The translations under genes and the position numbers were made by a program. Positions 1 through 24,730 of a stretch of DNA of 32,000 bases are shown here, piece after piece. Within the stretch, counting starts at the first letter, position 1; each line of letters opens with the position of its first letter. Location of the stretch: NCBI GenBank assembly GCA_000830275.1, contig CP010424.1, positions 630,001 to 662,000 on the forward strand, in the 5' to 3' direction. The notes beneath the pieces are model-generated. The model saw nothing but the letters and a program-made list of their open reading frames with translations. It was not told where the DNA came from and did not search any database. This DNA is from an archaeon GW2011_AR10 (lineage in GTDB: Archaea; Iainarchaeota; Iainarchaeia; Iainarchaeales; GW2011-AR10).

Positions 1-800
1 GTGAAGCCATTGCTTTCCTGTGGGCGGCAATGCAGACTGACTGCTCCATGCTAGTGTGTGGCAACACTGGCAGCGGGAAAACAAGCACACTGAACGCGCT
101 TTTCTGTTTTGTTCCAAAAGAGGAGAGAATTATTGTAACAGAGGAAACCCCTGAAATAAACCTGCCGCACGAACACATGGTAAAGCTCGTAACTGTTCAA
201 AACATTGGCATTGGCATGAGTGAACTCATCGAGAATACTTTAAGGATGAGGCCTGACAGGGTTGTTGTTGGTGAAATACGGAACAGGGAAGAAGTGAATG
301 CATTCATTGACACTCTCCTTGCAGGGCAGGGAAAGGGCTGCTATGCTACTTTTCACGCCAGATCCGCGAAAGAAGCTGCGCTGAGAATGAAGAAGTTAGG
401 AGTGATGGAAATGGATCTTGGGGCAGTTGACATTATTCTTGTTCAGAAAAGGTGGAATTCTGTCAGAGAAAAAAAGGTTTCAGCCGAAGGCCCATTTTCG
501 CAAACCTTTTCCCAAAAGGTTTCAGCCGAAGTCAGGCGCATCACTGAAATTGTTGAGGTCAGCCATTCAGCTGAAGGGCTTGAGTTGCGCACACTGTTTG
601 AATTTGACCACGAAAAAGGCATGCTTGTCAGAAAGAACAGGAGCTCAAAGGTGATGGAGAAAATGAAAATCACTTTCGGTTTAAATGAAAAGCAGTTGGG
701 GAAGCTGTTGAAGCAAAGGGAGAAAAGGCTTCGCCTGCTGCAGGCAAAAGAGCCATCATTGAAGGAATTCTTCGAGGAAATCAGCAATGAACCAGACTGA
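1..800 (+). CDS. Type II/IV secretion-family ATPase (FlaI/PilB/VirB11-like), C-terminal part; the 5' end lies outside the window
   Basis: The frame of ORF 30..800 stays open back to base 3 (..EAIAFLWAA-MQTD..), so the true start is upstream of the window. Motifs present: Walker A GNTGSGKTS, Asp box RIIVTEETPE, Walker B DRVVVGEIR, His box YATFHA. Confidence 0.9.
   Translation, partial: EAIAFLWAAMQTDCSMLVCGNTGSGKTSTLNALFCFVPKEERIIVTEETPEINLPHEHMVKLVTVQNIGIGMSELIENTLRMRPDRVVVGEIRNREEVNAFIDTLLAGQGKGCYATFHARSAKEAALRMKKLGVMEMDLGAVDIILVQKRWNSVREKKVSAEGPFSQTFSQKVSAEVRRITEIVEVSHSAEGLELRTLFEFDHEKGMLVRKNRSSKVMEKMKITFGLNEKQLGKLLKQREKRLRLLQAKEPSLKEFFEEISNEPD
472..531 (+). repeat. 18-bp perfect direct repeat (aaaaggtttcagccgaag) at 472-489 and 514-531, 42 nt apart, inside the ATPase CDS
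   Basis: Read directly from the sequence. The spacing is in frame (14 codons; protein reads KVSAEGPFSQTFSQKVSAE). The intervening DNA contains a 9-bp hairpin, aaacctttt/ccc/aaaaggttt (502-522). Confidence 0.9.
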
Positions 801-1590
801 ATGGATTGAGAGAAAGTTGTCAAAAGACTTAATGGAAGCCGGAATGAAGGTAAATGAAAAGGAATATCTTTCAAATGCATTCAAGTTTTCTTTGATTGCA
901 GCAATTTTTTTCTGGCTGGCTTGGAATCTTCTGTTCAATGAACTTTTTTTTGGGATTGCTGCAACTGCATTGTTCTTTCTTGCGTCTGTCTTGGTGTGGA
1001 TTTACCTGCCTGAAGCAAAAAAGAGAAAGCGCGCTGCACTGATTGAAAGGGATCTGCCGTTTGCTTTAATGCAGATGAGTGTTGAGCTGAACGTAAATGT
1101 TCCCTTCGAAAAAAGCCTGGAAAGGCTCTCCAAAGGAGGCTATGGCTTGGTTTCAGGGGAGCTGGGAAAAGCAATTGGTGAGGTGAAAGAAAAAGGGGCT
1201 TCGCTCCAGGAGGCGTTTATTCATGCAAGTGAAAGGAACCACTCTCACATGTTCCGAAGGGCACTGGCTCATCTAACGCAGGTGTACGAGCAGGGAAACA
1301 GAATCAAGGGCGAGGGGCTGAGGAGCCTGGCCAGAGAAGAGCTCGCACGGCAGAGGGCTAAAAGCAAGGAATTTTCAGGCAAGTTGGTAACGTATTCCTT
1401 GATGTTTATTGCCTTGTCGGCAATAATTCCTGCCTTGTTTCAGGCATTTATTGTTGTTGGCTCCACTTTCATGGAGCTGACGCTTTCACCGCTACAGGTG
1501 CTGCTCATTCCGGCGCTTGTTTTTCCACTGATTGATTTGGCGGTTTTGCAGCTCATAAGAAGCAAAACTCCAGAGTTCTTGAAAGGATGA
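787..1590 (+). CDS. T2SS-F/FlaJ/TadB-like pilus platform membrane protein (half-size, first of two)
   Basis: The start overlaps the ATPase stop by 14 nt. Hydrophobic helices flank a soluble T2SSF-like segment (DLPFALMQMSVELNVNVPFEKSLERL..GELGKAIGEVKEKGASLQEAF). Hydrophobic C-terminal helices are present. Confidence 0.75.
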   Translation: MNQTEWIERKLSKDLMEAGMKVNEKEYLSNAFKFSLIAAIFFWLAWNLLFNELFFGIAATALFFLASVLVWIYLPEAKKRKRAALIERDLPFALMQMSVELNVNVPFEKSLERLSKGGYGLVSGELGKAIGEVKEKGASLQEAFIHASERNHSHMFRRALAHLTQVYEQGNRIKGEGLRSLAREELARQRAKSKEFSGKLVTYSLMFIALSAIIPALFQAFIVVGSTFMELTLSPLQVLLIPALVFPLIDLAVLQLIRSKTPEFLKG

Positions 1591-1602
1591 GAGTGAAAGG
1601 AA

Positions 1603-2517
1603 ATGCTTGAGTTCTTTGAAGGCAGAGAATGGATGAAAGAATTTGAATCTGTTCTAAGGCAGAACAACTATGAAAAAGGGGTTAAGGGGTTTGTTAGGAG
1701 TGCAACAGTGCAGGGGGCAGTGCTTTTTCTTTTCACATTCAGCGCGCTACTGCTCACAGGACAAAATGAAGTATACATAATTGTTTTTTCTTTTGCAGCT
1801 TTTCTCGCTCCAGGAACTCTGAATTACTTATTCCAGCTCTTTGTTTTCGATTTGAGGAGGAAAAAAATTGAGGAATTGGTTCCTGATTTGCTGCTGCAGG
1901 CATCAATGCTTCCAGCAGGCACATCGCTTGAAAAAGCAATAGAGCGTTTTTCAAAGGCAGACTACGGCGAACTCAGCAGGGAATTCAGGAGAGCGCATGA
2001 AAGCATATTGAGTGGTGCTTCGCCGGAAGAAGCACTGGAAAAAATGAACAATAGCAACAGGTCAAAAACACTGGAGAGAGCAGTAAACCTGATAGTGCAG
2101 GGAATAAATTCAGGGAGCGAGGCAAGCCACGTGTTCAAGGAAACCGCTGAAGACATCCTTGAAACAAACAGCATTCTCCGAGAGCGCTCCTCTTCAATGG
2201 TAGTGGAAAAATACACTCTGCTCCTAGGCGGGGGAATAATTGTGCCGTTAATTCTCGGCCTGCTGGTTGGAATGGTGCATGAATTGAACTTTAATTCGTT
2301 GGCGGAACTAGGAATTGGTCTGCCGACGGAGCAGCGCGAGGCAGTAATGCAGGCAGCACTGCTTGCAAATCAACTTTACTTGGTTGAGTATGCAATTATT
2401 GCGTCGGTTTTTGTGGCTTTCCAGGAATCTGATTCCAAGAAGGCATTGCTGTATGCTGCCGTGCTTCTGCCATTGAGCTTTATCGCTTATCATGCGGGGC
2501 AGATGTTTGGCATTTGA
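1603..2517 (+). CDS. T2SS-F/FlaJ/TadC-like pilus platform membrane protein (half-size, second of two)
   Basis: Begins 12 nt after the previous gene. T2SSF-like segment: LVPDLLLQASMLPAGTSLEKAIERFSKADYGELSREFRRAHESILSGASPEEALEKM. Several TM helices follow. Confidence 0.75.
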   Translation: MLEFFEGREWMKEFESVLRQNNYEKGVKGFVRSATVQGAVLFLFTFSALLLTGQNEVYIIVFSFAAFLAPGTLNYLFQLFVFDLRRKKIEELVPDLLLQASMLPAGTSLEKAIERFSKADYGELSREFRRAHESILSGASPEEALEKMNNSNRSKTLERAVNLIVQGINSGSEASHVFKETAEDILETNSILRERSSSMVVEKYTLLLGGGIIVPLILGLLVGMVHELNFNSLAELGIGLPTEQREAVMQAALLANQLYLVEYAIIASVFVAFQESDSKKALLYAAVLLPLSFIAYHAGQMFGI

Positions 2518-2531
2518 AAGCAGGACAAAAA

Positions 2532-2654
2532 ATGACGTCCTCCCCTGCCTAAAGGCAGAGGGTATCCCAACATTTAATGGACGTCATGAACCCGTCAACG
2601 CAACACTTTGTCAAAAAGAAAACAGGTGTTTTTATTTCACTTGACAAAGTGTTG
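2532..2654. repeat. Two adjacent perfect inverted repeats: ATGACGTCC(2532-2540)/GGACGTCAT(2579-2587), and CAACACTTTGTCAA(2601-2614)/TTGACAAAGTGTTG(2641-2654)
   Basis: Read directly. The first pair is 9 bp with a 38-nt interior that holds a smaller CTGCC/GGCAG hairpin. The second pair is 14 bp with a 26-nt loop. Function is unknown (structured RNA, operator or terminator). Confidence 0.6.
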
Positions 2655-2686
2655 AAAAGATACCGAGACCAATAACCGCGACTTAA

Positions 2687-2974
2687 AAGCCGAGGCGCAC
2701 GCCTAACACTCACACATTATACCTAAAAAAGCCGGAGGAGCTTTCTGAGATATTATCCCCAAAAAGAATAGAACTGCTCAAGTACATAATCAGCAACCGC
2801 AAAAAAAACAGAACAATAAGTGAAATTTCCAAAAAGTTAAATAGAAAGCAGGAAGCAATAAGCAGGGACGCAAATTTATTGGTAAAGCACAATTTAATCA
2901 GGAAGATCCGACAAAAGCAGATGACCTGCTTGAAGGCCATTTACGGTTCCCTGCAAATAAGGTTGACCGCCTAA
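2687..2974 (+). pseudogene. Winged helix-turn-helix regulator ORF with no ATG/GTG/TTG start; possibly a degraded or frameshifted small archaeal regulator
   Basis: The open frame translates to ..THTLYLKKPEELSEILSPKRIELLKYIISNRKKNRTISEISKKLNRKQEAISRDANLLVKHNLIRKIRQKQMTCLKAIYGSLQIRLTA*. This is a typical wHTH layout. The only canonical in-frame starts are late (TTG 2879, ATG 2921). It was not called in the ORF track. The antisense ORF 2710..2940 looks like a shadow of it. Confidence 0.5.
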
Positions 2975-3083
2975 AGTAGTACCCCCAATCAAAATTTTTT
3001 TTAGAACCCGCCATGTTCTACATCTGAAAGCGATATCAAGGCAAGAATTAATAAGCAGTTTGCACTTTTTTTTATTGGATTTT

Positions 3084-3830
3084 ATGCCTGGAGCCATAGC
3101 GGAGTTTGTGGAGTTCAGCCCGAAAAACCTTAAGGGCTACACTATTATTGAGGGCTTTCCAGGTATGGGTTTGGTTGGAACAATTGCAGCCAAGTACATG
3201 GTTGAAAAAGTTAAGTTCAGGCTCTACGGTTACATTGATTCTGACATTTTCATGCCAATAATTAGGGTACACAAAGGCCTTCTAGTAAGGCCTGCAAGAA
3301 TTTATGTTCATGAAGAAAAAAAACTCGTTGTTCTGATTTCAGAGCAGGCAATTCCAAAACTTTACACAAACAGGCTTGCAAAAGAGGTTGTAAAGTGGAT
3401 TCAGAACAAGGGAATAACCGAGCTAATTTCCTTAAGCGGAATCCACGCATATAGTGAGGCGCCTGGCCAGCCAATAATTTATGGAATTGCAGCAAATGAG
3501 GAATCAGTGGACATGCTGAAAAAATTTAACCTTGAACTAATCCAGGATGGCATTACCACTGGAATAACTGCGATGATTTTAATGGAGCTCAAGAGAACAA
3601 ACATTAAAGGAATTTCAATTCTCGGGAATGTGAAGATTGCGGCAGATTACCAGGCCGCTGCAGAAGTGCTTAAAAAACTCAATGAACTGCTTTCACTTAA
3701 GATTGATGTCAAACCGCTGTTGAACGAGGCAAAAGAAGTTGAACGCGAGCTATTAAAGCAGTTGCAGACGACAAAGCAGACCAAGGACTCGGCGGAAAAA
3801 TTCGAGCCTAAGGCGCCGATGTATACTTAA
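3084..3830 (+). CDS. PAC2-family proteasome assembly chaperone-like protein (PbaA/PbaB-like)
   Basis: N-terminal GFPGMGLVGTIAAKYM motif typical of the PAC2 family. The C-terminus ..KAPMYT ends in a hydrophobic-Tyr-X (HbYX-like) tripeptide. ATG 3084 is preferred over TTG 3060 because the extension MHFFLLDF looks spurious. The AT-rich element ATTAATAA at 3047-3054 lies about 30 nt upstream. Confidence 0.75.
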   Translation: MPGAIAEFVEFSPKNLKGYTIIEGFPGMGLVGTIAAKYMVEKVKFRLYGYIDSDIFMPIIRVHKGLLVRPARIYVHEEKKLVVLISEQAIPKLYTNRLAKEVVKWIQNKGITELISLSGIHAYSEAPGQPIIYGIAANEESVDMLKKFNLELIQDGITTGITAMILMELKRTNIKGISILGNVKIAADYQAAAEVLKKLNELLSLKIDVKPLLNEAKEVERELLKQLQTTKQTKDSAEKFEPKAPMYT

Positions 3831-5612: not shown

Positions 5613-8600
5613 CTAATTTTTTTCTCTTCGAATGTAAACAAAGACCGCAATTAATGAAACAATGAAAAGTGCTAAAACAACAGGGTTTTCTGGAAGCGAT
5701 GGAAGGTTAAGCAGGCTCTTGTCGGTTTCCCCTACCTGCAGGTTAAGCACGTTGCCTGAAGCAGTTGAAGTTACCTCGTTGTTGGGGCCAACTCTTGCAG
5801 AAATGCCTTCGCGGAAAGCCTCAATCAAAGGCAGCAGCTGGGCGTTTTCAGCATACCACAAGCCTTTCTCCGGGTCATAATAGAATGCCCCGTTCCTTCC
5901 CTGCGCTGAAGTAAGAACCTCTGGCTTCTGCCCGTCGAAGGAAACTGTTGGAACACCGTTTTCTGCAGCAAAGTCAAGCGTGTGCTTTTTGCCGTTCTCG
6001 TCAATGAATTCAAGGCCATTTGGAGTGGCTCTTGCAGTTCCAGCAAAGTCTTGAATCTCGCCTGTTTCCTTATCTATTACCCTCAAATGGTCCTTGCATG
6101 CTCCTGTTTCATCTCTTTCCGAGCTCAGCACATACCTTTTGGTCGGGGTTTCAAATACTTGGAAGGGGCCGAATTTTTTTAAGGAAGTATTGAATGCAGC
6201 AACCTTTGCTTGGTTCGCGGGACTATTGGGGTCGCCTTCCACTTGGAAGTCAAGAGCTGGTTCCTCGCACTGGTTTTCAGGGTTAGTGGAGGAAGTCAGG
6301 TCAGTGTCAAGGCCCCTAACATCGTTTTGTTCAAGTATGCCCTGCTCGTGGTGCCTTAACCAAATAAGGTAACAGCCGTCAGGCCTTGCAACAATCATTC
6401 CATTCTTGAACTGGATTGACTTAAGCGAGCCAACTTCCGGAATCCCATCATTAGAGCTTGAGAGCGCAACATCATTGTTTGCAAGTACATTTATTGTTGA
6501 AATGTTTCCTACAGCAATTTTTCTTGGAACTCCTTCAGCGACAATCCTGTCACCTAATGGCCTGATGTTGGGGTGCGTAGTGGTTATAACGGAATTCACC
6601 AACCCAAATGTTGAGGTTAAATTGTTTCCCCCAACCAAAGGCAAACCAGTCTGCTGCATCACTCCATCCTGCAGGCACGCCCGCGCTTCAGGATGTGTTA
6701 TGAATGCCTCGCCCCTTGCATTCACCTGAATTGCAACATCAGCTGTTGGAGGCAAGCAGACAGTTGTCAATGTTCTTGGAACTTTTTTAGCTGGAATGCT
6801 TAGCTCAAGGTCATCTCCGGCCAACCTTGCTGCATCCTCGTTCTCTACAATAGGCTTTCCATCAAAGAGTATCTTGCCGTTCTCGAAATCAAAGTCAAGG
6901 CCTTTCCCTGTTGTTTTGTCTTTCACTGTTTCCTTTCCCTCTGTTTTGTATTCGCCGGAACTCATCTCGCAGCCCGGTCCACACCAGAAATAGAACAGCT
7001 TTCTTCCCTTCAGCTGGCCTGAGCTCTGACCTTGAATGCTCAAGCGTGCCTGAACAATGTTTTTTTCCTCGGAATCATTCACAAACTTTTTGATGTCATT
7101 TCCGATTCCTTCAACCTGCTCTTTGACCAATGAGTCTTCACTGCTGCCGCTGAATGCACCGGTTATCTGCTCGTTGAGGTTGCCAATAAAATTGGAAACT
7201 TTTTCAGTTGAAAGCTCCACGTTTCCTTCATCGTCCCTCTCCTCCATTGGAGGAACAAGGTAATGCACGAAGTAGCCTTCCTCAACATCAACGCAGTCCT
7301 GAAGCTTTGGAGCGTAAAGGGTTTGAATTGCAACAGTGCTGAATGCTCCAGGCCAGAAAAAGGTTGCGTAAGCCAAGGTTTCAATGCCGCCAAGCACTCC
7401 ACCAATGCCGCCTTCTTCAGGCAGGAATGGAGCAATTTTTTTTGCTGTGGCATAACCAGGCAAAGAGAACACTGCCTGCTTGCAGGTTTTTGGTTCCCCT
7501 TCGGGCTGCACGAATTCCTGGCCCCTGTCCCTTGCCTCGAATTCTTCCTGCTCGTTGCTCCAGGCATCATGCAAATCAATTCGTTCCCCTTCAATGTCCC
7601 CAGTGCTTCCCTTCAAGTCCATGTGGTGCGCGAAAGCAATCAGGGTTTGGCCTTTCTGCAAGGCATCCTCCGAGCGCGTGTCCTCAAGAATGTAGGCATC
7701 GAAAGGCCTGCCGACAACAAAGAAGGGGTTAAAGTCCTCCAAGTTGGCTGAATTCAATGTGACAAAACAGTCAACGCATTCATTGGGGCCAGTCAAGTAA
7801 AACGCAAGGCTTTCGGTTTCATTCCTCAGTTCCCTTCCTGAGAGCTTGTTGTAAAAGTCCGCAACAGGATTGAATTTATCGCTTACTTCATCAAGCACAA
7901 GCTTCCATGGAAGCTTGTTTGCAACCTGCACAAACAAATCGCCTTGATCAGAACCCTCATTTGCAAAGAAGTCAATGTATGCTTCAAAGTAAAGCGGCTT
8001 GTCTTGGAGCAGGAAGTCAACCTCGCTCCAAGTGTCTGGCAGCTGGTAAAGTGATAGGTCCTCAAAGCCTGCTCCTTTTTTGCTCCACCAGTAGCCAAAC
8101 GGGTAAACAGTCCACTTTGCACCGCCCTTGAACGAAAAATAGCTCCTTATTATTTCGTCTTCTTCTGCCGCAAGCTTGTCAAGCCAGCTCCAGTAGCGCC
8201 TTGAAACCCAGTTTCGTTCACGGAGAGTATTAAGCATTAAGTCAGTATTCACTTTTGACCTCAAAACGTTTGAACCAACCCTTGCGTTTGTCAATGCAGA
8301 TGAAAGCTCTTCCGGAGTAAGCACTTTAGAAGGCCCCCAGTTTCCTTGAACAATTGTAGGGTTGCCGCCAATCCTGTTCTGAATTAACGGAATGCTTGCA
8401 TCAGTGTAATGGATGTATTCGCCCATGTCGGTTTTTACCCAAGTATTGGCATAGCCTTTGGCCGCCCTTTCAAGGTTGCTGTAACTTAAGGCCCTAAACT
8501 CTGTTGTTGTGGCAGGGTCAAAGCCATAAAGTATGAGGTTTCCAAACTCGTCAGTTTCATAGGCGCTGCGGTACTTGTTTATCTCAGCCGTAAAGTTCCT

Positions 8601-10442
8601 CCAGTTGCCAGAGTCAACGAATTTATCCAGAATTACGCGGAAGTTCCTGTGCTCTGAGAACAAGTCAAGAACATCGCCTGTGTTCACCTGCTTTACTCCC
8701 TTGTCATACAGGCCCATATTGACATGCCTGACAATCCATTCAGGAAGGTCGGCTCCCATTTGGTCATCCGCAGTTGTGAGGAACTTTGCAAAAGAACGGC
8801 CATAATCAACAAGGGCTTTTTTCCCTTCAGGGTGCGTTAATGGGTCAATTCCTTGGTCCCTTAGTTTGTTAAAAATATTTGAGTATACTTTCTCTGACTG
8901 TTCCACTTCGTGGAGGCCGCCCCTCCATATTGTCCTCAGGTCTTTCATGACGCGGACAAACTCTGCTTTCTTTTCAAGAGTGTCAATTGATTCAAGGAAT
9001 CCGCCTTTCGCCTGCTGTTTTCCCCACCAGTCAAAGAACTCCTGGGTTTTAATAATTGGGTAGCCTGTGCCATCAGAGCTGCCGATTGTCATGCTCTGCC
9101 AGAAGTCACGCCAGCCGTACTTGTCAATTTTTGACTGCATCCTTGAAACCTTAAGGTCTCCAAGGAAAGAGCCAGGAGTTTCAAATGTTGCCCTGAACCT
9201 GTCAGCGTAATCTGTGAGTTTTCCTTTCAGGCCAGGCAAGAGGCCTCTTCTCGCATTCCAGCCGAACATTTTTTTTGCTGCATAGCCAAGGCTCGGCCCG
9301 AAATTTGTTACAACCATTTCAGCGCTCAGCCACTGGTTAAAGTATTTGTCAAACATCGAGTAAGTTGTTATAATGCAGTCGTTGCTGATGCAGTTGGTGC
9401 CGAATTCTGCGTCAAACTCCTGTGCAAGAATCGAGTTGGGAAGCAACTCTGTTTCCAGTCGAGTTGCGGTTTTAATGTGGTTGGGAAAAGAACATATGCT
9501 GTTATCCCACACCATTCCAGCTGAAGTGCATGAAGCTTCATCTCTTGGGGTTTCAATGCACTCTCCTGTTACCTTGCTGTAAAAGTTTTTTGCTCCATCA
9601 GTGCACTGCTCCTGGGAAACTTCTTTCCAGAGCTCTTCCTGTCCTTCCTCAGTGAAAACCGCTGCTGCCAGAACTTCCTGCTCTTCTGATGTGAACTCTG
9701 GCTTTTCTGTTGAGTTTTCATCAGTGAACCAGCTCTTTATTTTGTCGTATCCGCTGCCGAAAGCTTCCTTGATTGGTTTAAAATCTGCAGCAATTCCTGA
9801 ACCGGAATTTCTGTAAGTGAGGTTTTTTCCTGTAAGCCAGCAGTTCTGGTCGTAGTCCTTGCATCTCCCTGTACGCAGAGAATCATCAAGCACAAGACCG
9901 AAAGCGAAAGGCCCCTTTATGTGCCTGTTCAAGTAATTGCTTATCTCCCAAGGATTAAATTTTTTGTTTGGCAAGTCGGCTTTTGCCGTGACGTTTTCGT
10001 CCTGCTGCGATTTCAGAATGATGTTGTTTTCTTTCAGCTCATCCCTGTCATCAATCTCGTTTTCTGTTTGCTGTGGAAGAGCATCACCGCTTATCTCTTC
10101 TCCAACAAAGCCGTCTTTCAGGAGGTTTAGTATGTTGTTGCTTTCAGTTGGTGTAAGAGAACGGGACTCGCAGACATAACCCCTGTTTGGGAAAGGCGAA
10201 GGTATCGGCACTATAGGAGAAGTTGCAGGAGGAACTGCAGGTATTATTGGAGGGGGTTGTGGCACAGCATCAGGCGTCGGATCAAGCACTGTTGCATCTG
10301 CACCCTGAAATGCGGCAGAATTTTCGTTTTCAGTTGGATTTAAAGGTTCTGGTGCCTGTTCAGCGTAATAGTCCTGCGCGTTGGCAGGATAAGTGCTAAG
10401 CAGAATTATTGCAATCAAGAAAAGGCTTGGAAGTTTCCTCAC
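5613..10442 (-). CDS. Giant (1609 aa) secreted surface protein with a Pro-rich linker and a C-terminal PEP-CTERM-like sorting signal; candidate S-layer protein or adhesin
   Basis: Uninterrupted 4.8-kb ORF with a GTG start. Signal peptide RKLPSLFLIAIILLSTYPANA/QDYY. Pro-rich stretch PTPDAVPQPPPIIPAVPPATSPIVPIPSPFP. The C-terminus is tripartite: ..LPENP, a hydrophobic helix VVLALFIVSLIAVFVYI, and a basic cluster RREKN. I recognise no domain in the body. Confidence 0.9.
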   Translation of the reverse strand: MRKLPSLFLIAIILLSTYPANAQDYYAEQAPEPLNPTENENSAAFQGADATVLDPTPDAVPQPPPIIPAVPPATSPIVPIPSPFPNRGYVCESRSLTPTESNNILNLLKDGFVGEEISGDALPQQTENEIDDRDELKENNIILKSQQDENVTAKADLPNKKFNPWEISNYLNRHIKGPFAFGLVLDDSLRTGRCKDYDQNCWLTGKNLTYRNSGSGIAADFKPIKEAFGSGYDKIKSWFTDENSTEKPEFTSEEQEVLAAAVFTEEGQEELWKEVSQEQCTDGAKNFYSKVTGECIETPRDEASCTSAGMVWDNSICSFPNHIKTATRLETELLPNSILAQEFDAEFGTNCISNDCIITTYSMFDKYFNQWLSAEMVVTNFGPSLGYAAKKMFGWNARRGLLPGLKGKLTDYADRFRATFETPGSFLGDLKVSRMQSKIDKYGWRDFWQSMTIGSSDGTGYPIIKTQEFFDWWGKQQAKGGFLESIDTLEKKAEFVRVMKDLRTIWRGGLHEVEQSEKVYSNIFNKLRDQGIDPLTHPEGKKALVDYGRSFAKFLTTADDQMGADLPEWIVRHVNMGLYDKGVKQVNTGDVLDLFSEHRNFRVILDKFVDSGNWRNFTAEINKYRSAYETDEFGNLILYGFDPATTTEFRALSYSNLERAAKGYANTWVKTDMGEYIHYTDASIPLIQNRIGGNPTIVQGNWGPSKVLTPEELSSALTNARVGSNVLRSKVNTDLMLNTLRERNWVSRRYWSWLDKLAAEEDEIIRSYFSFKGGAKWTVYPFGYWWSKKGAGFEDLSLYQLPDTWSEVDFLLQDKPLYFEAYIDFFANEGSDQGDLFVQVANKLPWKLVLDEVSDKFNPVADFYNKLSGRELRNETESLAFYLTGPNECVDCFVTLNSANLEDFNPFFVVGRPFDAYILEDTRSEDALQKGQTLIAFAHHMDLKGSTGDIEGERIDLHDAWSNEQEEFEARDRGQEFVQPEGEPKTCKQAVFSLPGYATAKKIAPFLPEEGGIGGVLGGIETLAYATFFWPGAFSTVAIQTLYAPKLQDCVDVEEGYFVHYLVPPMEERDDEGNVELSTEKVSNFIGNLNEQITGAFSGSSEDSLVKEQVEGIGNDIKKFVNDSEEKNIVQARLSIQGQSSGQLKGRKLFYFWCGPGCEMSSGEYKTEGKETVKDKTTGKGLDFDFENGKILFDGKPIVENEDAARLAGDDLELSIPAKKVPRTLTTVCLPPTADVAIQVNARGEAFITHPEARACLQDGVMQQTGLPLVGGNNLTSTFGLVNSVITTTHPNIRPLGDRIVAEGVPRKIAVGNISTINVLANNDVALSSSNDGIPEVGSLKSIQFKNGMIVARPDGCYLIWLRHHEQGILEQNDVRGLDTDLTSSTNPENQCEEPALDFQVEGDPNSPANQAKVAAFNTSLKKFGPFQVFETPTKRYVLSSERDETGACKDHLRVIDKETGEIQDFAGTARATPNGLEFIDENGKKHTLDFAAENGVPTVSFDGQKPEVLTSAQGRNGAFYYDPEKGLWYAENAQLLPLIEAFREGISARVGPNNEVTSTASGNVLNLQVGETDKSLLNLPSLPENPVVLALFIVSLIAVFVYIRREKN

Positions 10443-10623: not shown

Positions 10624-11166
10624 TTAAATTTCCGGCCAATAGTAAATGAATGCCAGAGTGCCGCTGATTATCCATTGAGCGAAAAAGAGCACGAATATGG
10701 AGGCAAGCAGTGTTACAATGAAAACCGTTAAGTAGAGCTTCAGTGCCCAGTGGAACTTGAACGACTTCTTGATTTTTTCGTGCAAGAACAGGCCTATGAA
10801 CTCAAGCGGCAAAACAATGAAGGAAAGCACTAATGCAACAACAAGCAGCCTTACAAGCTGAATTAGCGCAATTAAGAGCAGCTCCAGAACAGGAGTCTGG
10901 AATTCAACTGGAGTTTCACCAAATGGATCGCTTTGAAGCAAGGGCAAAGCAGGCTGAAGATACAAAACTAATATTAATGAGAATATTAGTAAATATGTGG
11001 TTATGAATCCTGACTTGAACCAACTCCACTTGTACTTTCCGGCAATGGCCCTGCGCACTTTTGAAGCAAAAAAAACGAAAATGAAAACAGGAACGGAGCT
11101 TATGAAGGAGCCTTTCAGCAAATCAATCAGGGAAAAAACGGTAACCGAAACAAGGTCCTGCACCAT
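10624..11166 (-). CDS. Hypothetical polytopic membrane protein (180 aa)
   Basis: ORF with 4-5 hydrophobic helices and no recognisable motif. Confidence 0.65.
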   Translation of the reverse strand: MVQDLVSVTVFSLIDLLKGSFISSVPVFIFVFFASKVRRAIAGKYKWSWFKSGFITTYLLIFSLILVLYLQPALPLLQSDPFGETPVEFQTPVLELLLIALIQLVRLLVVALVLSFIVLPLEFIGLFLHEKIKKSFKFHWALKLYLTVFIVTLLASIFVLFFAQWIISGTLAFIYYWPEI

Positions 11167-11199: not shown

Positions 11200-12462
11200 A
11201 TGGAAGATGTCTTGATGGGGTTTATTGATTTGCTGCTTGATGGCTTCATTGCATTTTATCTTGTTCTTGGCTCAACTAGCCTTGGCTACATGTTCTTGCG
11301 TTTGGGGTGGCCGAGGATAAGGATTCTTGACAAGCAGTACCGCGCGGGGTGGAGCTTGATTCTTGGAGTGATTTTTACTTCCATTATTGTGGTGAGCTCG
11401 CTTATTTTCAGCATTACTCCTTTCCTTTCATTCAATTTCAAGGAGTTTTTGTTCCTTAACCTGAGCGTTACTTTTTTCATTGCAGTTGTAGTTCTTACAA
11501 TTAAGAGAAAAATCCTTGTGCCGCGAAAGGCAACTGTGACTGTGCCAAGCGAACTGCTTAGAGCAAAAGTTGCGGCTGCAAAGGCAATGACGCATATTGA
11601 GTTAAGCGAAAGCCTTAAGGAAGGCGTAATCAGCGTTAAGCCATTGGAAGAGCAAAAGATTGCCGCGCTGAGAAAAAAACTTGAGGAAGGAAAAGAACTG
11701 GGTGCCATGAAAGCATCTGTTCAGGTTGAGTCAAGGCTTCCTCCGCTTGAAAAAATGTCAGAACAAAAGCATGAACAAAAAGAGGAAAAAATAGAAAGAG
11801 GGGAAGCAACGCACCCACTGGTGGCAAAACTTTTCGGAAAAAAACAGCTGGAAAAAACAGAAGAGAAGCTAATGGCCGAAACTGGAAGGGCAAAGCCTTC
11901 CATTGAAGAGAAAATAGGGCAGGCAAAACAGAGGGAAGGAGAAGCAAAAGAGAAAAGGCTTGCTGAACTCCAAAACCTGCTAGAGCAGCAGAGAGATAAA
12001 GCAAGGGAAGAGGAGGGAAAGCCATCCAAGCCTTCTTGGAGTTTCACCAGCAGACCGAAGCAGGGCGGGTTTGAAGCAAGGAAAACAGAAGCAGGAAAGA
12101 AAGCATTAGGAGAACAGTTGAAAAAAACAGAAGCACTAAAGAAACCCGCAGCACAGAAACCGTTAAAGGAAACAATACAGTTCACTCCCCTGCCTCCAGA
12201 GGAAAGAAAGATAGAGGCTGTGAGAGCTCCTCCAAAACTGCAGCAAGAGCAGGTGCCTTCTGTGCCAAAAACTGCAATACCTGAAAAGCAGGGAAAAAAA
12301 GTTGAAGGGAAGCTGAGAGAACTGGACAAAACCGGGAAAAAACAAATTCAGCAGCGGCCTGAAGACAGCGGAGAAGATGTTCTGGACAGGTTCCTGAGAG
12401 AAAAAGGGGCCCAACTAAGAGTGCTAAAAAAGAAAAAAACAAAAGGCGAAGAAAGTGGGTGA
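11200..12462 (+). CDS. Membrane-anchored K/E-rich low-complexity (coiled-coil-like) protein
   Basis: The N-terminal ~100 aa contain 3 hydrophobic helices. A ~300-aa Lys/Glu-rich region follows. The alternative start ATG 11215 (MGFIDLL..) fits the TATA spacing better. Confidence 0.7.
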   Translation: MEDVLMGFIDLLLDGFIAFYLVLGSTSLGYMFLRLGWPRIRILDKQYRAGWSLILGVIFTSIIVVSSLIFSITPFLSFNFKEFLFLNLSVTFFIAVVVLTIKRKILVPRKATVTVPSELLRAKVAAAKAMTHIELSESLKEGVISVKPLEEQKIAALRKKLEEGKELGAMKASVQVESRLPPLEKMSEQKHEQKEEKIERGEATHPLVAKLFGKKQLEKTEEKLMAETGRAKPSIEEKIGQAKQREGEAKEKRLAELQNLLEQQRDKAREEEGKPSKPSWSFTSRPKQGGFEARKTEAGKKALGEQLKKTEALKKPAAQKPLKETIQFTPLPPEERKIEAVRAPPKLQQEQVPSVPKTAIPEKQGKKVEGKLRELDKTGKKQIQQRPEDSGEDVLDRFLREKGAQLRVLKKKKTKGEESG

Positions 12463-13369: not shown

Positions 13370-14155
13370 TTACCTGCACGCTGAAGAATCAAAGTGCTCA
13401 ATGCCTGCTTCAATGCAGCACCACTCAGAACTCTTAAAGTAGGGAACAGAACCTACTTCTGTCGCATCCCACAAAACCAAATCTGCCTGCGTTTCAAATG
13501 GCCTGAAAGTTATCTCGTCCTCTGCAACCATTGTTATTTTGGCTGAAGCCTGCGCTGTGTCGCCAACCCGGATAATAAGGTCTTTCAGGCTGTTGTTGAT
13601 TGTGCCAAAGTCAGCATTTTCCCCAATGCTGCACAGCAAATCAGTTCTTGGAGGGTCATCAGCAACAAAGTTTGGAAACCTCCCTGTTCCAATGTTCTCA
13701 AAGTTTGTTTTGTGGAAAAAAATGAAGATGAATTTCTGCCTCACATCCTCTTGGTCTCTTGGAACAGAAAGATAGAAAATGTAATCAAAGTTGTCTCCAA
13801 GAGGAGCCATTATTGAATTGATGTCCTGCGCTAAAATCAGCATTGTTTTCTCTGTGAGGTAGCGCTTGTCGGCATAATCTTCCTTCACATAAGCAAGCAG
13901 CTGGTCAATTTCAACTTCACTACTTAAGCCGTAAATTGAGCTGTCTGGGTTTCTTGGAGTGCTGCTGTAAAGAATTGTTTTAAGGGCATCCGTTGCAAAA
14001 TCAGAATTGTAGTTCTGCACTATCTGCGCTGAAACAGTGTTGCCGTATCCATTGGAGAAAGAGAAAAGGAAAACGCTGATTGAGGTAACTATCAGGAGAA
14101 AGTAAAGAGCATCTGTTACTGCTGCTTGGCCTCTGTTTTCCTTTAAGGCATCCAT
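13370..14155 (-). CDS. Pilin-like protein with an archaeal class III signal peptide (last gene of the pilus operon)
   Basis: N-terminus MDALKENRG/QAAVTDALYFLLIVTSISVFLF, that is [K/R]-G-Q followed by a hydrophobic helix. Overlaps the upstream gene by 13 nt. Confidence 0.75.
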   Translation of the reverse strand: MDALKENRGQAAVTDALYFLLIVTSISVFLFSFSNGYGNTVSAQIVQNYNSDFATDALKTILYSSTPRNPDSSIYGLSSEVEIDQLLAYVKEDYADKRYLTEKTMLILAQDINSIMAPLGDNFDYIFYLSVPRDQEDVRQKFIFIFFHKTNFENIGTGRFPNFVADDPPRTDLLCSIGENADFGTINNSLKDLIIRVGDTAQASAKITMVAEDEITFRPFETQADLVLWDATEVGSVPYFKSSEWCCIEAGIEHFDSSACR

Positions 14156-14682
14156 GTAACCACCACCAAGTGCATTGGCTTAATAACCCTGTTGTCTTCA
14201 ACTGCAATCGGGTAAATCCTTGCAACAATTTCTTTGTCGGCAAAAAAACGGTAAGCAAAGCTAGGGGAAGAAGAAATGTCGCTGTTAATTGCAGGGTCAA
14301 TGTTGTGGCATGAGAACTCGTTGCCTGCTTCATCCAAGAAAAAGCCCACGTTGTATAGCCTTGCATCCTGGGCATTGTATTGCAGGCTGTATTGGTCTGT
14401 GGCAGTATAATAGTTTGTTATTCCCGCGCGGAATTTAAGGTTTGGAATGCTGAGTGTACTGCACAGCGCTTTGAAGTTCTCGTAGCCACTTATATAGCTT
14501 GTGCCTTTAAGGACTTTGGCAATTTTTATCACTTTGATGTCAGAATCGAACTTGGAGTTTTTATTGTCAAAGACACCGAAAGCGAAAGTAAAGGTTGAAA
14601 AAAACATTATCAGCGCGAAGAGCAGTGGAATCAGGGAAGGCAGGTCATCTCCAATCGGCCCCAAAAAACCTTTATTCAGCAA
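14143..14682 (-). CDS. Pilus-operon accessory protein with an N-terminal hydrophobic anchor (weak pilin-like signal)
   Basis: TTG start overlapping the upstream stop (TTGCTGA). N-terminus LNKG/FLGPIGDDLPSLIPLLFALIMFFSTFTFAF. Confidence 0.65.
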   Translation of the reverse strand: MLNKGFLGPIGDDLPSLIPLLFALIMFFSTFTFAFGVFDNKNSKFDSDIKVIKIAKVLKGTSYISGYENFKALCSTLSIPNLKFRAGITNYYTATDQYSLQYNAQDARLYNVGFFLDEAGNEFSCHNIDPAINSDISSSPSFAYRFFADKEIVARIYPIAVEDNRVIKPMHLVVVTWMP

Positions 14683-15344
14683 GTGAAACCAACCCCTGGG
14701 TAAACGCTTTCACCCACGCTTGATTTTATGGCATTGCATGTCGGGCCAACGCTGCATGGAAAAATGTAGAGGGAGCTTTGCCCCCTCTTGATTTCCTTAA
14801 CTAACTGAATTGAATCCATTGGAACTCTGGCCTGAGGGTCAATGTAAACAGATTCCCCTGTGTCAGTGGCCAGTTCGCGGAGTGTTCCAATTCCCCCGTA
14901 CTCGTCACCCAAATAGTCTTGGCTGAAAAGGGTTACTTCTGCTTTTGTTTCAAAGGATTTTGCTGCAATTGCTTTTGGAATGTAGGAAGGGTCATTAATT
15001 GATTTCACGAGGTCGCGCCTCGGGAAAACCGAGAAAATAACTTTCGAGATTGTTTCAGGGCCTGAGGGAAGCTCTTTCTCAAACTGCGTTACACTTATTT
15101 TCATCACATAGTAGAATTCTTGGCCGCTTACATCAAGGGAGCGCGGGAATGTATGTGAATCAGAAAAACAGTAAGCGGGGGAAGAAGCAACACTGCTTGC
15201 TTTGGTGAGAACCCTGTCAAGCAACAGCTGTGCTTCCTTCACCTTGACTATGTCGATTAAGCCGAAAGTGAAGAAGGCAACGATTGCAAAAATTGATACC
15301 ACAAGTATCAAGAGATTCATTTTGCTTAAAATGAAGCCAAGCAT
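14676..15344 (-). CDS. Pilus-operon accessory protein with an N-terminal TM anchor
   Basis: ATG 15344 (MLGFILSKMNLLILVVSIFAIVAFF) is preceded by GAGGG with a 6-nt spacer, and it lies 2 nt after the upstream TGA. The ORF track extends the ORF to TTG 15368. Confidence 0.65.
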   Translation of the reverse strand: MLGFILSKMNLLILVVSIFAIVAFFTFGLIDIVKVKEAQLLLDRVLTKASSVASSPAYCFSDSHTFPRSLDVSGQEFYYVMKISVTQFEKELPSGPETISKVIFSVFPRRDLVKSINDPSYIPKAIAAKSFETKAEVTLFSQDYLGDEYGGIGTLRELATDTGESVYIDPQARVPMDSIQLVKEIKRGQSSLYIFPCSVGPTCNAIKSSVGESVYPGVGFTC

Positions 15345-15346
15345 TG

Positions 15347-15892
15347 TCAAACCCTCTTGTAAACGCAAATCCTTGGCTGCGGGGAGAACAAGTGGAACTG
15401 CTTGATTAAAGTGTACTGGCCGGGCTCAATTGCTTCGTCTTTCTTCCATTCCTTTACTTTAAATTCTGTTGGCTGGTCGTCAAAGTCGTGGCAGACTGTT
15501 GCGGAAGGAAAATCCGTTGCAGAAGAAATGTTAAGACACTTTATTGAACTGAAGTCAGGCGAGGAAAACAAAAGCAGAGTGCATTCATAGCGCAACCCGC
15601 CACAATGAAAAGAGCAAGTGGCCCGGTCATCCCTGCTGACAATCCTCAGCGAGCTATCATTCTGGTTAAAGCAGGACGGCATATCGTATGCAACAGTTTT
15701 TTTGCCTTCGCCTTTTGCAACTGTTTCAAGCGCAGTCTTCAATTCCTCCATGTTCTGGTCAATTTTGCCTTCACACTGCGCTCTCAGCAAAGTGCTCATT
15801 GCATTGAGCCCTACAACTATCACAAAAGTCATTGTTATTACTGCAATCAGCAGCTCGAAAGGGGCTGCTTCCTGGCCTTTCTGGCTGAGCAT
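15347..15892 (-). CDS. Pilin-like protein with an archaeal class III signal peptide
   Basis: From ATG 15892: MLSQKG/QEAAPFELLIAVITMTFVIVVGL. A TATA-like element TTTATATA (complement of 15917-15924) lies about 28 nt upstream. The ORF-track start at 15943 adds a spurious-looking extension. The mature part is Cys-rich. Confidence 0.75.
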   Translation of the reverse strand: MLSQKGQEAAPFELLIAVITMTFVIVVGLNAMSTLLRAQCEGKIDQNMEELKTALETVAKGEGKKTVAYDMPSCFNQNDSSLRIVSRDDRATCSFHCGGLRYECTLLLFSSPDFSSIKCLNISSATDFPSATVCHDFDDQPTEFKVKEWKKDEAIEPGQYTLIKQFHLFSPQPRICVYKRV

Positions 15893-16001
15893 GGTAACAA
15901 GAATACTGTAAAGAGATATATAAAGATTCTCAGAATCAATCAACAGGTATTGAGGGCAAGCATTATGAGCTGTTTGTGTTACTGTAAAAAAACGCAGTGT
16001 T

Positions 16002-16169
16002 TTACTTATTGAAATACTTGGCCTGCTGCCTGCTCCAAACCTTATTCGGAGTTTTTTTCAGCCATTCAGCGTACATGTCGATAAATTCCATGCGCTGCTG
16101 CCTGTTTCTCCTCATTTCCTCTTTAAGCTCTTTCAAATCTTTTTTTGTAAGCTTTAGCCCTTTTCCCAT
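16002..16169 (-). CDS. Small basic protein (55 aa), not in the ORF track
   Basis: Manual translation: MGKGLKLTKKDLKELKEEMRRNRQQRMEFIDMYAEWLKKTPNKVWSRQQAKYFNK*. It fills the gap in the minus-strand operon. The overlapping + strand ORFs 15605..16012 and 15997..16200 have implausible composition. Confidence 0.5.
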   Translation of the reverse strand: MGKGLKLTKKDLKELKEEMRRNRQQRMEFIDMYAEWLKKTPNKVWSRQQAKYFNK

Positions 16170-16328
16170 AAAATTTTCTCCGCCTGCTTTTCAACCCTGA
16201 AATTTTGAAAGCTCTCTTTCAAAAACAATCCTGTTTCCCTTGAATTCCAGTTCCATAAATTAATCTGCCAACAAACTTAATTTAACCATTCTCAAGCAAA
16301 AAAAGTATCCAAGTATTTGAAGTAGTAG

Positions 16329-16487
16329 TCAGTTTATGAGCGGCTGCCTTTTAACTATTTCCTGGCTCTTCTTGAACATTGGCTTAATCAAAGCAATCAG
16401 CAAAAGCGCTGCAATAATAAAAATAATGATTAGGTAAATTGAGCTCCATTCACCCTGCGCCCTTTCACCTAATTCAGGAAATCCCAT
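16329..16487 (-). CDS. Small (52 aa) pilin-like / Flp-like protein, not in the ORF track
   Basis: Manual translation: MGFPELGERA/QGEWSSIYLIIIFIIAALLLIALIKPMFKKSQEIVKRQPLIN*. It has the same [K/R]-[G/A]-Q plus hydrophobic-helix pattern as the neighbouring pilin-like genes. Confidence 0.5.
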   Translation of the reverse strand: MGFPELGERAQGEWSSIYLIIIFIIAALLLIALIKPMFKKSQEIVKRQPLIN

Positions 16488-16533
16488 ATAGAAAAAGAAT
16501 GGAAAAAGAAGTATTTAATGATTGGTGTTAGGT

Positions 16534-17082
16534 TTAACTTGCCGGAATAATGCTTACAAGGCAAATCCTTTCAGTGTTTGAGGGGTCAAATATTGCTGTT
16601 CCACCGCCACAAAAGCTGTTGTAGCCGGAAAACACTGTGTCAAGCCTTGCTTCTAGGACGGTTTCCTCAACCCTGTTCGCGTTATCGCAGAGCACGTATA
16701 GCTTCTGCTGCTGGTCAGAGTTGCCGTTGTAGCGAATCCAAGAGCCTTGAGCAACTTCCTCATAGTTAGGGTTGCTTCCTGAAACAGTGTCAGAAATTAA
16801 AACGCAAAGCTGGTGCTCTCCAAGCGAACCAGTTTTTTCTGCAATTGTCCTTGACCTCAGGCTTGTGCCGTTCTTGAATGTTACTAATCCTGTTCTTTCA
16901 GGCGTGCCCAAATTGTTGATGAGTGTCTTAATTTTTGAGGACGCTTCCTCTGTGGGGTCGCCTTGGCTTGGGGGCGCAATCTGCGTTAAAATCTGCAGCA
17001 GAATTGTGAGAATGAATACTGCAACAATTGCTGCAATCAACAGCTTGAAAACGCTGAAAGCCTGCCCTCTCTCATTCAACAT
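16534..17082 (-). CDS. Pilin-like protein with an archaeal class III signal peptide
   Basis: N-terminus MLNERG/QAFSVFKLLIAAIVAVFILTILLQIL. TATA-like TTTAAATA (complement of 17112-17119) is centred about 33 nt upstream of the ATG. It is a paralog of 17148..17612 (shared ..KGT..A.[KR]TG..Q.CV.I.. block). Confidence 0.8.
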   Translation of the reverse strand: MLNERGQAFSVFKLLIAAIVAVFILTILLQILTQIAPPSQGDPTEEASSKIKTLINNLGTPERTGLVTFKNGTSLRSRTIAEKTGSLGEHQLCVLISDTVSGSNPNYEEVAQGSWIRYNGNSDQQQKLYVLCDNANRVEETVLEARLDTVFSGYNSFCGGGTAIFDPSNTERICLVSIIPAS

Positions 17083-17147
17083 AGCAATCGTAAATAGAAA
17101 CTCTTAACCCATATTTAAAGGTTTTGCTTTAATTCGGCTATAAACAG

Positions 17148-17612
17148 CTAAGGCGTAATTGGTTTAGAGAAAGAGAACTTGCAGCAGATTTCGCAGGTTG
17201 AATCGCAAAAGGAGGCAGGGTCAAGGTTTGTTGTGCACTGCGCGTAAAAGTTTGTTTCAATGCGGTAATTTACCAGTATTCTTTGCGAGTCAACAGTGAA
17301 AGAGGAACTGCTTGGAGCAAGAATTTCAACGCATTGCCCCTCTAATCCTGTTCTTCTTGCAAGAAAATCTTTAGTATAAACTGTGCCTTTGTCGAAGAGG
17401 AGGTTTTCAACAACAAGAATGTCATTGTTTGGCTGCTGCACCGCGTTCTCTAATCCTTCAAGAAAACGCTCTTTGCTCACGTTTATTTTGAACTCCTCAA
17501 AGGAACGGATTGCACCGAGAATTATTAATAAAATCAGCAGCGCAACTATTGCGCCAATCATCATCTTGAACGGCTCAAACTGCCCTTTCTCCATACTAAA
17601 AACATCTCCCAA
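17148..17612 (-). CDS. Pilin-like protein with an archaeal class III signal peptide
   Basis: N-terminus ..MEKG/QFEPFKMMIGAIVALLILLIILGAI. The start is either TTG 17612 or ATG 17594. The C-terminus is Cys-rich. Confidence 0.8.
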   Translation of the reverse strand: MGDVFSMEKGQFEPFKMMIGAIVALLILLIILGAIRSFEEFKINVSKERFLEGLENAVQQPNNDILVVENLLFDKGTVYTKDFLARRTGLEGQCVEILAPSSSSFTVDSQRILVNYRIETNFYAQCTTNLDPASFCDSTCEICCKFSFSKPITP

Positions 17613-17633
17613 TTTTTTTTAGTGTAAAAAACA

Positions 17634-19991: not shown

Positions 19992-20005
19992 AAAATGGTT
20001 TCACT

Positions 20006-24367: not shown

Positions 24368-24730
24368 CATTATAGTGTTTTCTCCTTCAAAGTGTTTGTC
24401 CCCAGTAACAATCGGCAGATTGTACTGCTTTGCTGTTGCAAGAATGATTGCATCAATTAAACCAAAATCCTTGAAGTTTTTTCTTTTTTCTATTTTTAAT
24501 ATACCTGATGTTTCCAATTGTTCTTGGTTGACTTCGATAATTGTAGACAGGTTTTTAACAATGTGAAAAATTTTTTGCCGGTTAAGTTTGCTTTTTTCAA
24601 CCCACTCGCTCAGCTCTGCAATAGAAATAGCACTTGTGAAACACTGGTTATTAGCAATAACTTCTTTTACTTTTAGGCCCCTGCTAGTACCATTAAATAA
24701 TTCAATCCAAGCATATGTATCCAAAAGCAC
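24362..24730 (-). CDS. vapC: PIN-domain toxin (VapC-like)
   Basis: GTG start abutting the antitoxin stop. N-terminal LLDTYAWIE (first acidic residue). ..GLIDAIILATAKQYNLPIVTGDKHF.. is typical of a PIN C-terminus. Confidence 0.8.
   Translation of the reverse strand: MLLDTYAWIELFNGTSRGLKVKEVIANNQCFTSAISIAELSEWVEKSKLNRQKIFHIVKNLSTIIEVNQEQLETSGILKIEKRKNFKDFGLIDAIILATAKQYNLPIVTGDKHFEGENTIML

Follow-up and report, generated by a model that had tools for sequence, protein, structure and literature searches.

The 32,000-nucleotide stretch of DNA analysed here (the window; contig CP010424.1, positions 630,001 to 662,000) comes from archaeon GW2011_AR10 (AR10), a DPANN archaeon of the Diapherotrites/Iainarchaeia from groundwater. 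It carries a gene for a 1609-amino acid (aa) surface protein, which we call BIG, a gene for a 185-aa membrane protein of the exosortase/archaeosortase family, and a type IV pilus-like operon between the two (Table 1). We describe BIG and its conserved C-terminal tail, which has the layout of a sorting signal, and examine the case for the 185-aa enzyme being its processing partner.

The BIG open reading frame (ORF) runs without interruption for 1609 codons from a GTG start on the minus strand, and the plus-strand frame of the same interval is full of stops; the first-pass annotation, made from the sequence alone, had given its coordinates correctly and left its strand unstated. The product is 100% identical to the hypothetical protein QT03_C0001G0715 of this organism. 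It begins with a Sec-type signal peptide (hydropathy peak, KD19, of 1.60), which is presumed to be cleaved after ANA; equivalent hydrophobic N-termini with A-x-A-like ends, as judged by hydropathy and sequence inspection, are found in most of the homologues. Because an N-terminal signal peptide is combined with a single C-terminal transmembrane helix, the most hydrophobic segment of the protein and the only strong one apart from the signal peptide, BIG is predicted to have type I topology. The signal peptide and the Pro-rich spacer had both been recognized in the first-pass annotation, as had a Trp- and Cys-containing body (29 Trp, 20 Cys) devoid of known domains: these approximately 1450 residues match no Pfam family at E ≤ 0.1 and nothing meaningful in NCBIfam, and a profile of 34 BIG homologues found no match among PDB sequences. 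Its claim of many N-x-S/T sequons did not hold: BIG has 9, where 11.1 ± 3.0 are expected from shuffled sequences of the same composition (P(≥obs) = 0.81), and 34 family members show no enrichment in the same comparison.

About 60 homologues of BIG were found, all from the Iainarchaeia/Diapherotrites lineage. The 35 full-length ones are 29–51% identical to BIG, nearly all 1450–1600 aa long, unnamed, and derived from archaeal metagenome bins. Their alignment has a mean column identity of 42% and ten Cys among its invariant columns. The alternative of a spurious ORF, or of a tail that arose by chance, is refuted by this homologue set, and with the conserved gene order, the confidently modelled domains and the presence of the tail in all 31 homologues described below it retains practically no credibility.

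Table 1. Features of the BIG–archaeosortase locus (positions are those of the window)
Feature	Position	Strand	Basis or remark
Second T2SSE/T2SSF set with PAC2-family gene	30..3830	+	Converging on BIG 3' side; Pfam T2SSE 9.4e-32, T2SSF 8.3e-10 and 4.4e-15, PAC2 7.3e-44
BIG gene, predicted 1609-aa type I surface protein	5613..10442	-	ORF list and translation; stop codon included
Basic cluster / cytoplasmic tail RREKN, BIG residues 1605-1609	5616..5630	-	Sequence
C-terminal transmembrane helix, BIG residues 1588-1604 (VVLALFIVSLIAVFVYI)	5631..5681	-	KD19 = 2.52
Signature N-L-P-S-L-P-E, BIG residues 1579-1585	5688..5708	-	Column counts, 31 homologues
Variable Gly/Asp/Ser-rich linker, BIG residues 1571-1578 (GETDKSLL)	5709..5732	-	
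Beta-rich C-terminal domain, BIG residues ~1164-1540	5823..6953	-	AF2 model mad67ad4f7a0c, pLDDT >90
Inter-block linker, variable, BIG residues 961-990	7473..7562	-	Conservation 0.22, gaps 57%
N-terminal conserved block, BIG residues 88-960	7563..10181	-	Conservation profile
Pro-rich spacer, BIG residues 55-87	10182..10280	-	Conservation 0.18-0.23, gaps 27-46% in family alignment
Sec-type signal peptide, BIG residues 1-22 (MRKLPSLFLIAIILLSTYPANA, then Q)	10377..10442	-	Sequence and hydropathy
M180, 180-aa multi-pass membrane protein	10624..11166	-	Directly upstream of BIG, co-directional, 181-bp gap
Type IV pilus-like operon between archaeosortase and BIG	13370..22285	-	Pfam and N-termini
About six small ORFs with class-III (prepilin)-like N-termini such as MLNERGQAFSVFKLLIAAIV	13370-17612	-	
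T2SSF-like platform protein, 785 aa, unusually large	17634-19991	-	T2SSF 2.7e-05, 24.6 bits, just under cutoff 25.2
T2SSE ATPase, 759 aa, unusually large	20006-22285	-	Pfam T2SSE 7.6e-17
Exosortase/archaeosortase-family membrane protein, 185 aa	23810..24367	+	TIGR04178
Archaeosortase residue codons: Cys90; Asn129; Arg132; His152	24077-24079; 24194-24196; 24203-24205; 24263-24265	+	

The C-terminus of BIG reads ..NLPSLPE-NP-VVLALFIVSLIAVFVYI-RREKN followed by the stop codon. Column counts for this region were taken from the 31 homologues whose sequence includes the C-terminus. A seven-residue signature, N-L-P-S-L-P-E, stands out, with N in 26, L in 29, P in 29, S in 28, L in 27, P in 31 and E in 25 of the 31, so that its form across the family can be written N-[LI]-P-S-[LIVM]-P-E with an invariant second Pro. 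These columns are 81–100% conserved, against the 42% family mean, and the linker immediately before them is not conserved. The first-pass annotation had transcribed the C-terminus exactly and had taken ‘LPENP’ for the motif; only 14 of the 31 homologues have a Pro following E-N, and NLPSLPE is the conserved element. Two to three polar or Pro residues separate the signature from a helix of 17–19 residues, one face of which is conserved (L1590 in 26/31, F1593 in 23/31, L1597 in 23/31 and F1601 in 18/32). Arg occupies the first position after the helix in 23 of the 31, and at least two K/R occur within the next 10 residues in 28. In BIG the helix ends 5 residues before the stop, and across the homologues roughly 5–24 residues follow it, of which 3 to about 20 lie beyond the basic cluster. 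The layout of linker, motif, helix and basic cluster is kept in 31/31 homologues, down to 29% overall identity, and this conservation supports the view that the tail is under strong purifying selection.

The tripartite architecture of an exosortase/archaeosortase client, which the first-pass annotation had proposed, is thus common to the family. The attributes of such signals have been set out by Haft (Haft 2023, bioRxiv 10.1101/2023.06.07.544157) as a position near the C-terminus, at least three nearly invariant residues, a hydrophobic helix, a basic cluster, and a signal peptide at the other end of the protein, and BIG displays each of these. A conserved helix face is, according to the same source, to be expected in signals that are read by intramembrane enzymes. 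Three further attributes on the list are not seen in the BIG tail, namely multiple occurrences per genome, carriage by unrelated proteins, and the existence of homologues with another signal or none.

The restriction of the tail to one family was examined with a tail-only profile of 35 positions, searched with HMMER against 1.84 billion representative proteins at E ≤ 1e-3. All 29 matches were full-length members of the BIG family or C-terminal fragments with the upstream ‘GSFYYDPEKGLWYAENAQLLPL’ block; one 111-aa match is probably a divergent fragment of the same family. Applied to 775 kb of related loci the profile recovered BIG-family ORFs only, and within the window a C-terminal helix with basic tail occurs on the BIG ORF only. 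No unrelated protein with the tail was therefore seen among the representatives or the related loci, whole genomes not having been scanned. A word-indexed search with a profile of the tail plus linker returned a single 63-aa fragment, missed members of the family itself and was discarded as uninformative. Since the tail is confined to the BIG family the system, if real, would be one-to-one, and not one-to-many in the style of PEP-CTERM or PGF-CTERM.

Neither is the tail one of the named signals, as the first-pass annotation had correctly surmised. Comparison was made with PGF-, PEP-, PEF-, PIP-, VPXXXP-, Loki- and Heimdall-CTERM and with LPXTG. Among the named CTERM models only Loki-CTERM matched the BIG tail, with 15.3 bits, below its cutoff of 19.9, and none of the sorting-domain models was significant against the 31 tails (best E = 0.019; Loki-CTERM matched by 5/31).

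The first-pass annotation had also pointed to a sortase-family gene at 23810, and this assignment stands. Its product scores 39.7 bits against the signature model TIGR04178 (cutoff 23), which is matched by 19/19 members of its subfamily, and by sequence it is a genuine member of the exosortase/archaeosortase family. Its scores with the models for named subtypes (ArtA–ArtF, XrtA to XrtY, pacearchaeosortase and heimdallarchaeosortase) fall far below the cutoffs (at best XrtX, 34.7 versus 170 bits; ArtB 22.1 versus 150 and ArtD 16.5 versus 125); for the other 18 subfamily members, where the comparison is by E-values only, the best is 4.8e-13 (XrtX), which we judge to be far from the cutoffs. Homologues form 46 clusters with lengths of 119–214 aa (most 155–214), all assigned to Diapherotrites or unclassified archaea. 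On these scores and this distribution the enzyme is a member of an unnamed, lineage-restricted Iainarchaeal subfamily. Four residues are invariant in 19 homologues: Cys90 (in YLCTGLLE), Asn129 and Arg132 (FNxxRI) and His152 (SHD). The superfamily is proposed to use Cys, Arg and His as its catalytic triad (Haft 2023; PMC6098224). A calculation of hydropathy alone gives about six hydrophobic segments, and the residues of interest lie near segment ends, with C90 in segment 84–100, R132 just after 115–131 and H152 just before 154–170.

Related loci, with titles including Candidatus Iainarchaeum and Diapherotrites, share a conserved gene order: a divergent sortase gene, the large T2SSE ATPase, the large T2SSF-like protein, about six prepilin-like ORFs, two to three variable ORFs, M180 and BIG. 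On the 3' side of BIG, and converging on it, are one or two ORFs, a PAC2-family gene, two T2SSF genes and a second T2SSE gene. Synteny of the cluster was seen in 44 species genomes, and the arrangement around BIG is kept down to 35% identity of BIG. Sortase and BIG are separated by 13.4 kb (AR10), 15.2 kb (GCA_974426465.1) and 16.1 kb (a 527-kb groundwater contig). Among the regions that cover both positions 13 have both genes, two have BIG and no sortase at its usual position, one has neither, and none has the sortase without BIG; the sortase thus accompanies BIG in 13 of 15 BIG-carrying regions. Both families are found in the Iainarchaeal lineage only, and on the same long contigs. For one-to-one systems, co-occurrence as consecutive or nearby genes takes the place of the multiplicity attributes (Haft 2023); here the genes are nearby, at 13–16 kb, and not consecutive, so that an inherited gene order is possible.

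Taken together, these data suggest, with a probability that we put at about one half, that BIG is a lineage-specific type I surface protein and the single dedicated client of the 185-aa archaeosortase, to which it would be directed by a new signal of the NLPSLPE type. The putative pathway would begin with export of BIG by Sec by means of the N-terminal signal peptide, after which the ectodomain of approximately 1550 aa, with its conserved cysteines, would fold outside the cell. The C-terminal helix would hold the precursor in the membrane, the R/K cluster remaining cytoplasmic. The membrane-embedded archaeosortase, in which Cys90 would be the nucleophile and Arg132 and His152 lie where consecutive helices end, would then read both N-L-P-S-L-P-E, at the outer end of the helix, and the conserved helix face. 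It would cleave at the signature and, on the model of ArtA and the Haloferax S-layer glycoprotein, exchange the helix for a lipid anchor.

Several observations weigh against this reading. The link between sortase and BIG is one of gene neighbourhood at 13–16 kb, and not of adjacency. Since the genes are not adjacent and a whole pilus-like operon separates them, their linkage may be no more than gene order inherited in a small syntenic lineage, and since the tail occurs on one family only its conservation cannot be separated from that of the family. The first-pass annotation had named the sortase as the anchor of BIG; synteny in most relatives agrees with this as a candidate pairing. It had tied its proposal to two things, further carriers of the motif and a true sortase relationship; the second was found, and the first was not among the representative proteins and related loci searched. 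In addition, the 2–3-residue spacer between signature and helix, and the up to about 20 residues that follow the basic cluster in some homologues, are features of the tail that speak against a sortase-type signal, the latter being longer than is typical of such signals. In two loci with BIG, L048 and L046, the usual position of the sortase gene is without one; L046 is rearranged, and in its BIG tail the Glu is lost and the basic cluster displaced.

Finally, the constant neighbour of BIG is not the sortase but M180. A profile built from four positional orthologues of this protein, which has at least four hydrophobic segments, found one ORF in each of 23 loci, and in every locus where BIG could be mapped M180 lies directly upstream on the same strand. 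This tighter linkage is what would be expected if the helix were a conventional stop-transfer anchor retained on mature BIG, with NLPSLPE and the helix face docking a membrane partner, most likely M180 or possibly a component of the flanking pilus-like machines, and the sortase having other business. A tail found on one family is likewise expected of a family-specific interaction surface, and the long cytoplasmic extensions and the state of L046 and L048 point in the same direction. On the other hand a Pro-rich acidic signature at the outer helix boundary, with a flexible linker before it and an Arg-led cluster after it, is a hallmark of processed signals (Haft 2023). M180 matches no Pfam or NCBIfam family, which is also why we did not accept it as a known intramembrane protease, and with no recognizable family or catalytic motif its role is as unproven as that of the sortase. 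We consider retention of the anchor the main rival explanation, less probable than the dedicated pair, and one that does not exclude sorting, since M180 could be an accessory sorting factor.

Dedication of the archaeosortase to BIG may also be questioned from the side of the enzyme. Secreted proteins with a signal peptide, a C-terminal helix and a K/R tail adjoin the sortase gene in four of the related loci, with ends such as ‘..AVPETNV-IGAALVGLLALAFVF-GSRQKKR’ and ‘..EAPEIH-LILIILTT..NKK’, and further type I proteins lie near it in two more. The enzyme might then serve a variable set of large type I surface proteins by way of a loose signal of the kind ‘Pro-Glu + helix + basic’, BIG being one client among many or no client at all. 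However, these sortase-adjacent proteins have no common juxtamembrane signature and thus do not show three nearly invariant residues. Three of them are homologous over their C-terminal ~300 residues and completely different at the helix boundary, and AR10 has no type I protein of this sort beside its sortase. Because the juxtamembrane motif is not conserved even among homologous sortase neighbours, we do not accept a loose shared ‘PE’ signal and regard this alternative as unlikely. Giant proteins of 2745 aa (locus L056, 10755-18992) and 2878 aa (L059, 12483-20534+), absent from AR10, are encoded just downstream of the sortase gene in two genomes and carry CarboxypepD_reg/SdrD_B-like repeats and an N-terminal anchor. 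They were rejected as better clients: the 2745-aa protein, whose sequence is complete to the stop codon, lacks a C-terminal helix, and the C-terminus of the 2878-aa protein lies beyond the fetched locus.

The first-pass annotation had taken BIG for the major envelope protein or an adhesin, and BIG could serve as the main, S-layer-like component of the envelope. Its gene occurs as a single copy and is missing from only one of the related regions that cover its expected position, and because of this near-universal presence and the precedent of the Haloferax S-layer glycoprotein a role as the major envelope protein is plausible. The absence of sequon enrichment and the helix-rich half of the protein (see below) do not particularly favour such a role; a helix-rich N-terminal half is unusual for S-layer proteins, and sequon enrichment is not a strict requirement for archaeal S-layer (glyco)proteins. 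More speculatively, and we would not rate it as likely, BIG and its constant neighbour M180 might act in partnership with a dedicated archaeosortase and both flanking pilus-like machines as a lineage-defining Iainarchaeal surface apparatus, either an envelope lattice or a contact/attachment machine, built on a protein with two folds without detectable relatives and anchored by way of a new sorting signal.

The experimentally studied model for cleavage and lipid anchoring is ArtA of Haloferax (PMC6098224). The resemblance of the AR10 locus to the ArtA/PGF-CTERM system, as represented by the Haloferax S-layer glycoprotein, lies in a large Sec-exported surface protein with a tripartite C-terminal signal and a polytopic Cys/Arg/His enzyme of the same superfamily. 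They differ in that the BIG signature is NLPSLPE and not PGF; in that the 185-aa enzyme is far below the subtype cutoffs, ArtA being unmatched by the 19 subfamily members at E ≤ 0.01; in that ArtA has from 1 to 52 clients per genome (PMC6098224) and the present enzyme would have one client family; and in that the organism is a DPANN archaeon rather than a euryarchaeon and its processing is predicted. With PEP-CTERM/exosortase systems (XrtA and others) and PEF-CTERM/ArtC the locus shares a Pro-Glu signature near the helix and the enzyme superfamily, and the nearest named subtypes of the enzyme are short exosortases, XrtX (matched by 18/19 members), XrtG and XrtH. Unlike PEP-CTERM, the 31 tails are matched by no PEP-CTERM-type model at cutoff, their conserved residues reach upstream (N-L-P-S-L) and are followed by the 2–3-residue spacer, and the signal is not a multi-client one.

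The JDVT-CTERM/myxosortase MrtJ pair (Haft 2023) is also similar, in that its signal occurs about once per proteome, has conserved residues inside the helix, and was recognized with its enzyme by gene neighbourhood and co-occurrence rather than by multiplicity. MrtJ, however, is a glutamic-type CAAX-like protease and not an exosortase/archaeosortase, and its gene is adjacent to that of its client. Uncultured archaeal lineages, including the DPANN Pacearchaeota, are represented in NCBIfam by subfamilies and signals of their own (pacearchaeosortase, heimdallarchaeosortase with Heimdall-CTERM, and Loki-CTERM); paceosortase and heimosortase are matched marginally by the present subfamily (1/19 each, E = 1e-3 and 4e-3). 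Archaeosortases have been described in a subset of the Euryarchaeota, and next to nothing has been established about the cell surface of uncultured DPANN archaea (PMC6098224). The literature that we searched contains no description of the BIG/sortase system, of a dedicated one-client DPANN archaeosortase or of these NCBIfam lineage models.

The locus offers a concrete candidate triple of enzyme, signal and client for the Iainarchaeia. The profile of NLPSLPE, helix and R/K cluster could become a new CTERM model, and the archaeosortase subfamily could be given a name. A hypothetical protein is raised to a candidate principal surface component, and a system with one client would be a simple one in which to study how enzymes of the exosortase family read their signals. 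Because lineage-specific archaeosortase/CTERM pairs are already an established pattern in NCBIfam, the advance is incremental rather than conceptual.

Structure prediction adds two domains to the picture of BIG. Modelling with AlphaFold (AF2) from alignments of 35–36 sequences gave a helix-rich core at residues ~417–747 in the N-terminal block (model m562d1e6fab9a, pLDDT about 90) and the beta-rich C-terminal domain listed in Table 1. The N-terminal model has no Foldseek neighbour below E = 0.4 (best 0.42), and its top matches, the type III secretion tip protein SipD and flagellin, were judged to be noise. The C-terminal model gives only weak matches of the beta-propeller class in PDB and BFVD (E 1.7e-4 to 1e-2, probability ≤ 0.35) with poor TM-scores, those in BFVD including Kelch, MORN and tail-fibre proteins. 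These are too weak for us to call a propeller, an immunoglobulin (Ig) array, a beta-helix or a viral fusion-protein-like fold; the beta-helix or Ig-like folds for which the first-pass annotation had suggested segmental modelling are not recognizable.

Two local peculiarities of BIG may be mentioned. Residues ~268–320 (window about 9483-9641, minus strand) form an AR10-specific insertion with extra cysteines; the family alignment has 97% gaps over residues 271–300, and AR10 BIG has 20 Cys where its relatives have 12–19. Residues ~1011–1045 (7338-7442, minus strand) are conserved, mildly hydrophobic and Gly-rich (IGGxLAxxESLxYxxFFWxGIFxSxAxQ), and appear in the AF2 model as a low-confidence helical hairpin. 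With a KD19 of only 1.13 they were rejected as a transmembrane segment, and with it the notion of a transmembrane hairpin or fusion loop.

The second T2SSE/T2SSF set of Table 1 has counterparts in three of the related loci (L007, L008 and L055). Between it and BIG is a plus-strand gene (3841-4716) for a 291-aa protein that is anchored in the membrane by its N-terminus, has about 20 Cys recurring in a pattern of roughly 25 residues, and matches nothing in Pfam; a 291-aa ORF occupies the equivalent position beside BIG in L007, the correspondence being one of length and position only. Upstream of M180 the otherwise minus-strand gene string from the pilus operon to BIG is broken by two plus-strand genes (11200-13363) for Lys/Glu-rich low-complexity proteins of 420 and 302 aa, the latter with a double zinc ribbon at its end; this pair gives rise to an AT skew of 0.55 at 12001-13000. 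On the far side of the operon a PIN-domain toxin gene (24362-24730, minus strand) shares 6 nucleotides with the 3' end of the sortase gene in AR10. Relatives, including L007 and L059, have other toxin-antitoxin pairs (HicAB, ParE, MazE/PIN) inserted at differing places within this cluster.

One of the related loci, JAFCBY010000012.1, is labelled ‘Candidatus Falkowbacteria bacterium’ and carries the Iainarchaeal sortase/T2SSE/T2SSF cluster at 53–68% protein identity; it is probably a mis-binned archaeal contig. The window also contains, at 25707-28757 on the plus strand, a gene for a 1016-aa secreted protein in which an Amidase_3 domain (N-acetylmuramoyl-L-alanine amidase, 8e-34) is combined with a PKD domain; its match to glucosaminidase is weaker (6.2e-05) and, at 24.1 bits, falls short of the cutoff of 30.2. 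Archaea are without murein, and the presence of peptidoglycan hydrolase domains suggests either an attack on bacterial walls or the acquisition of a bacterial gene.

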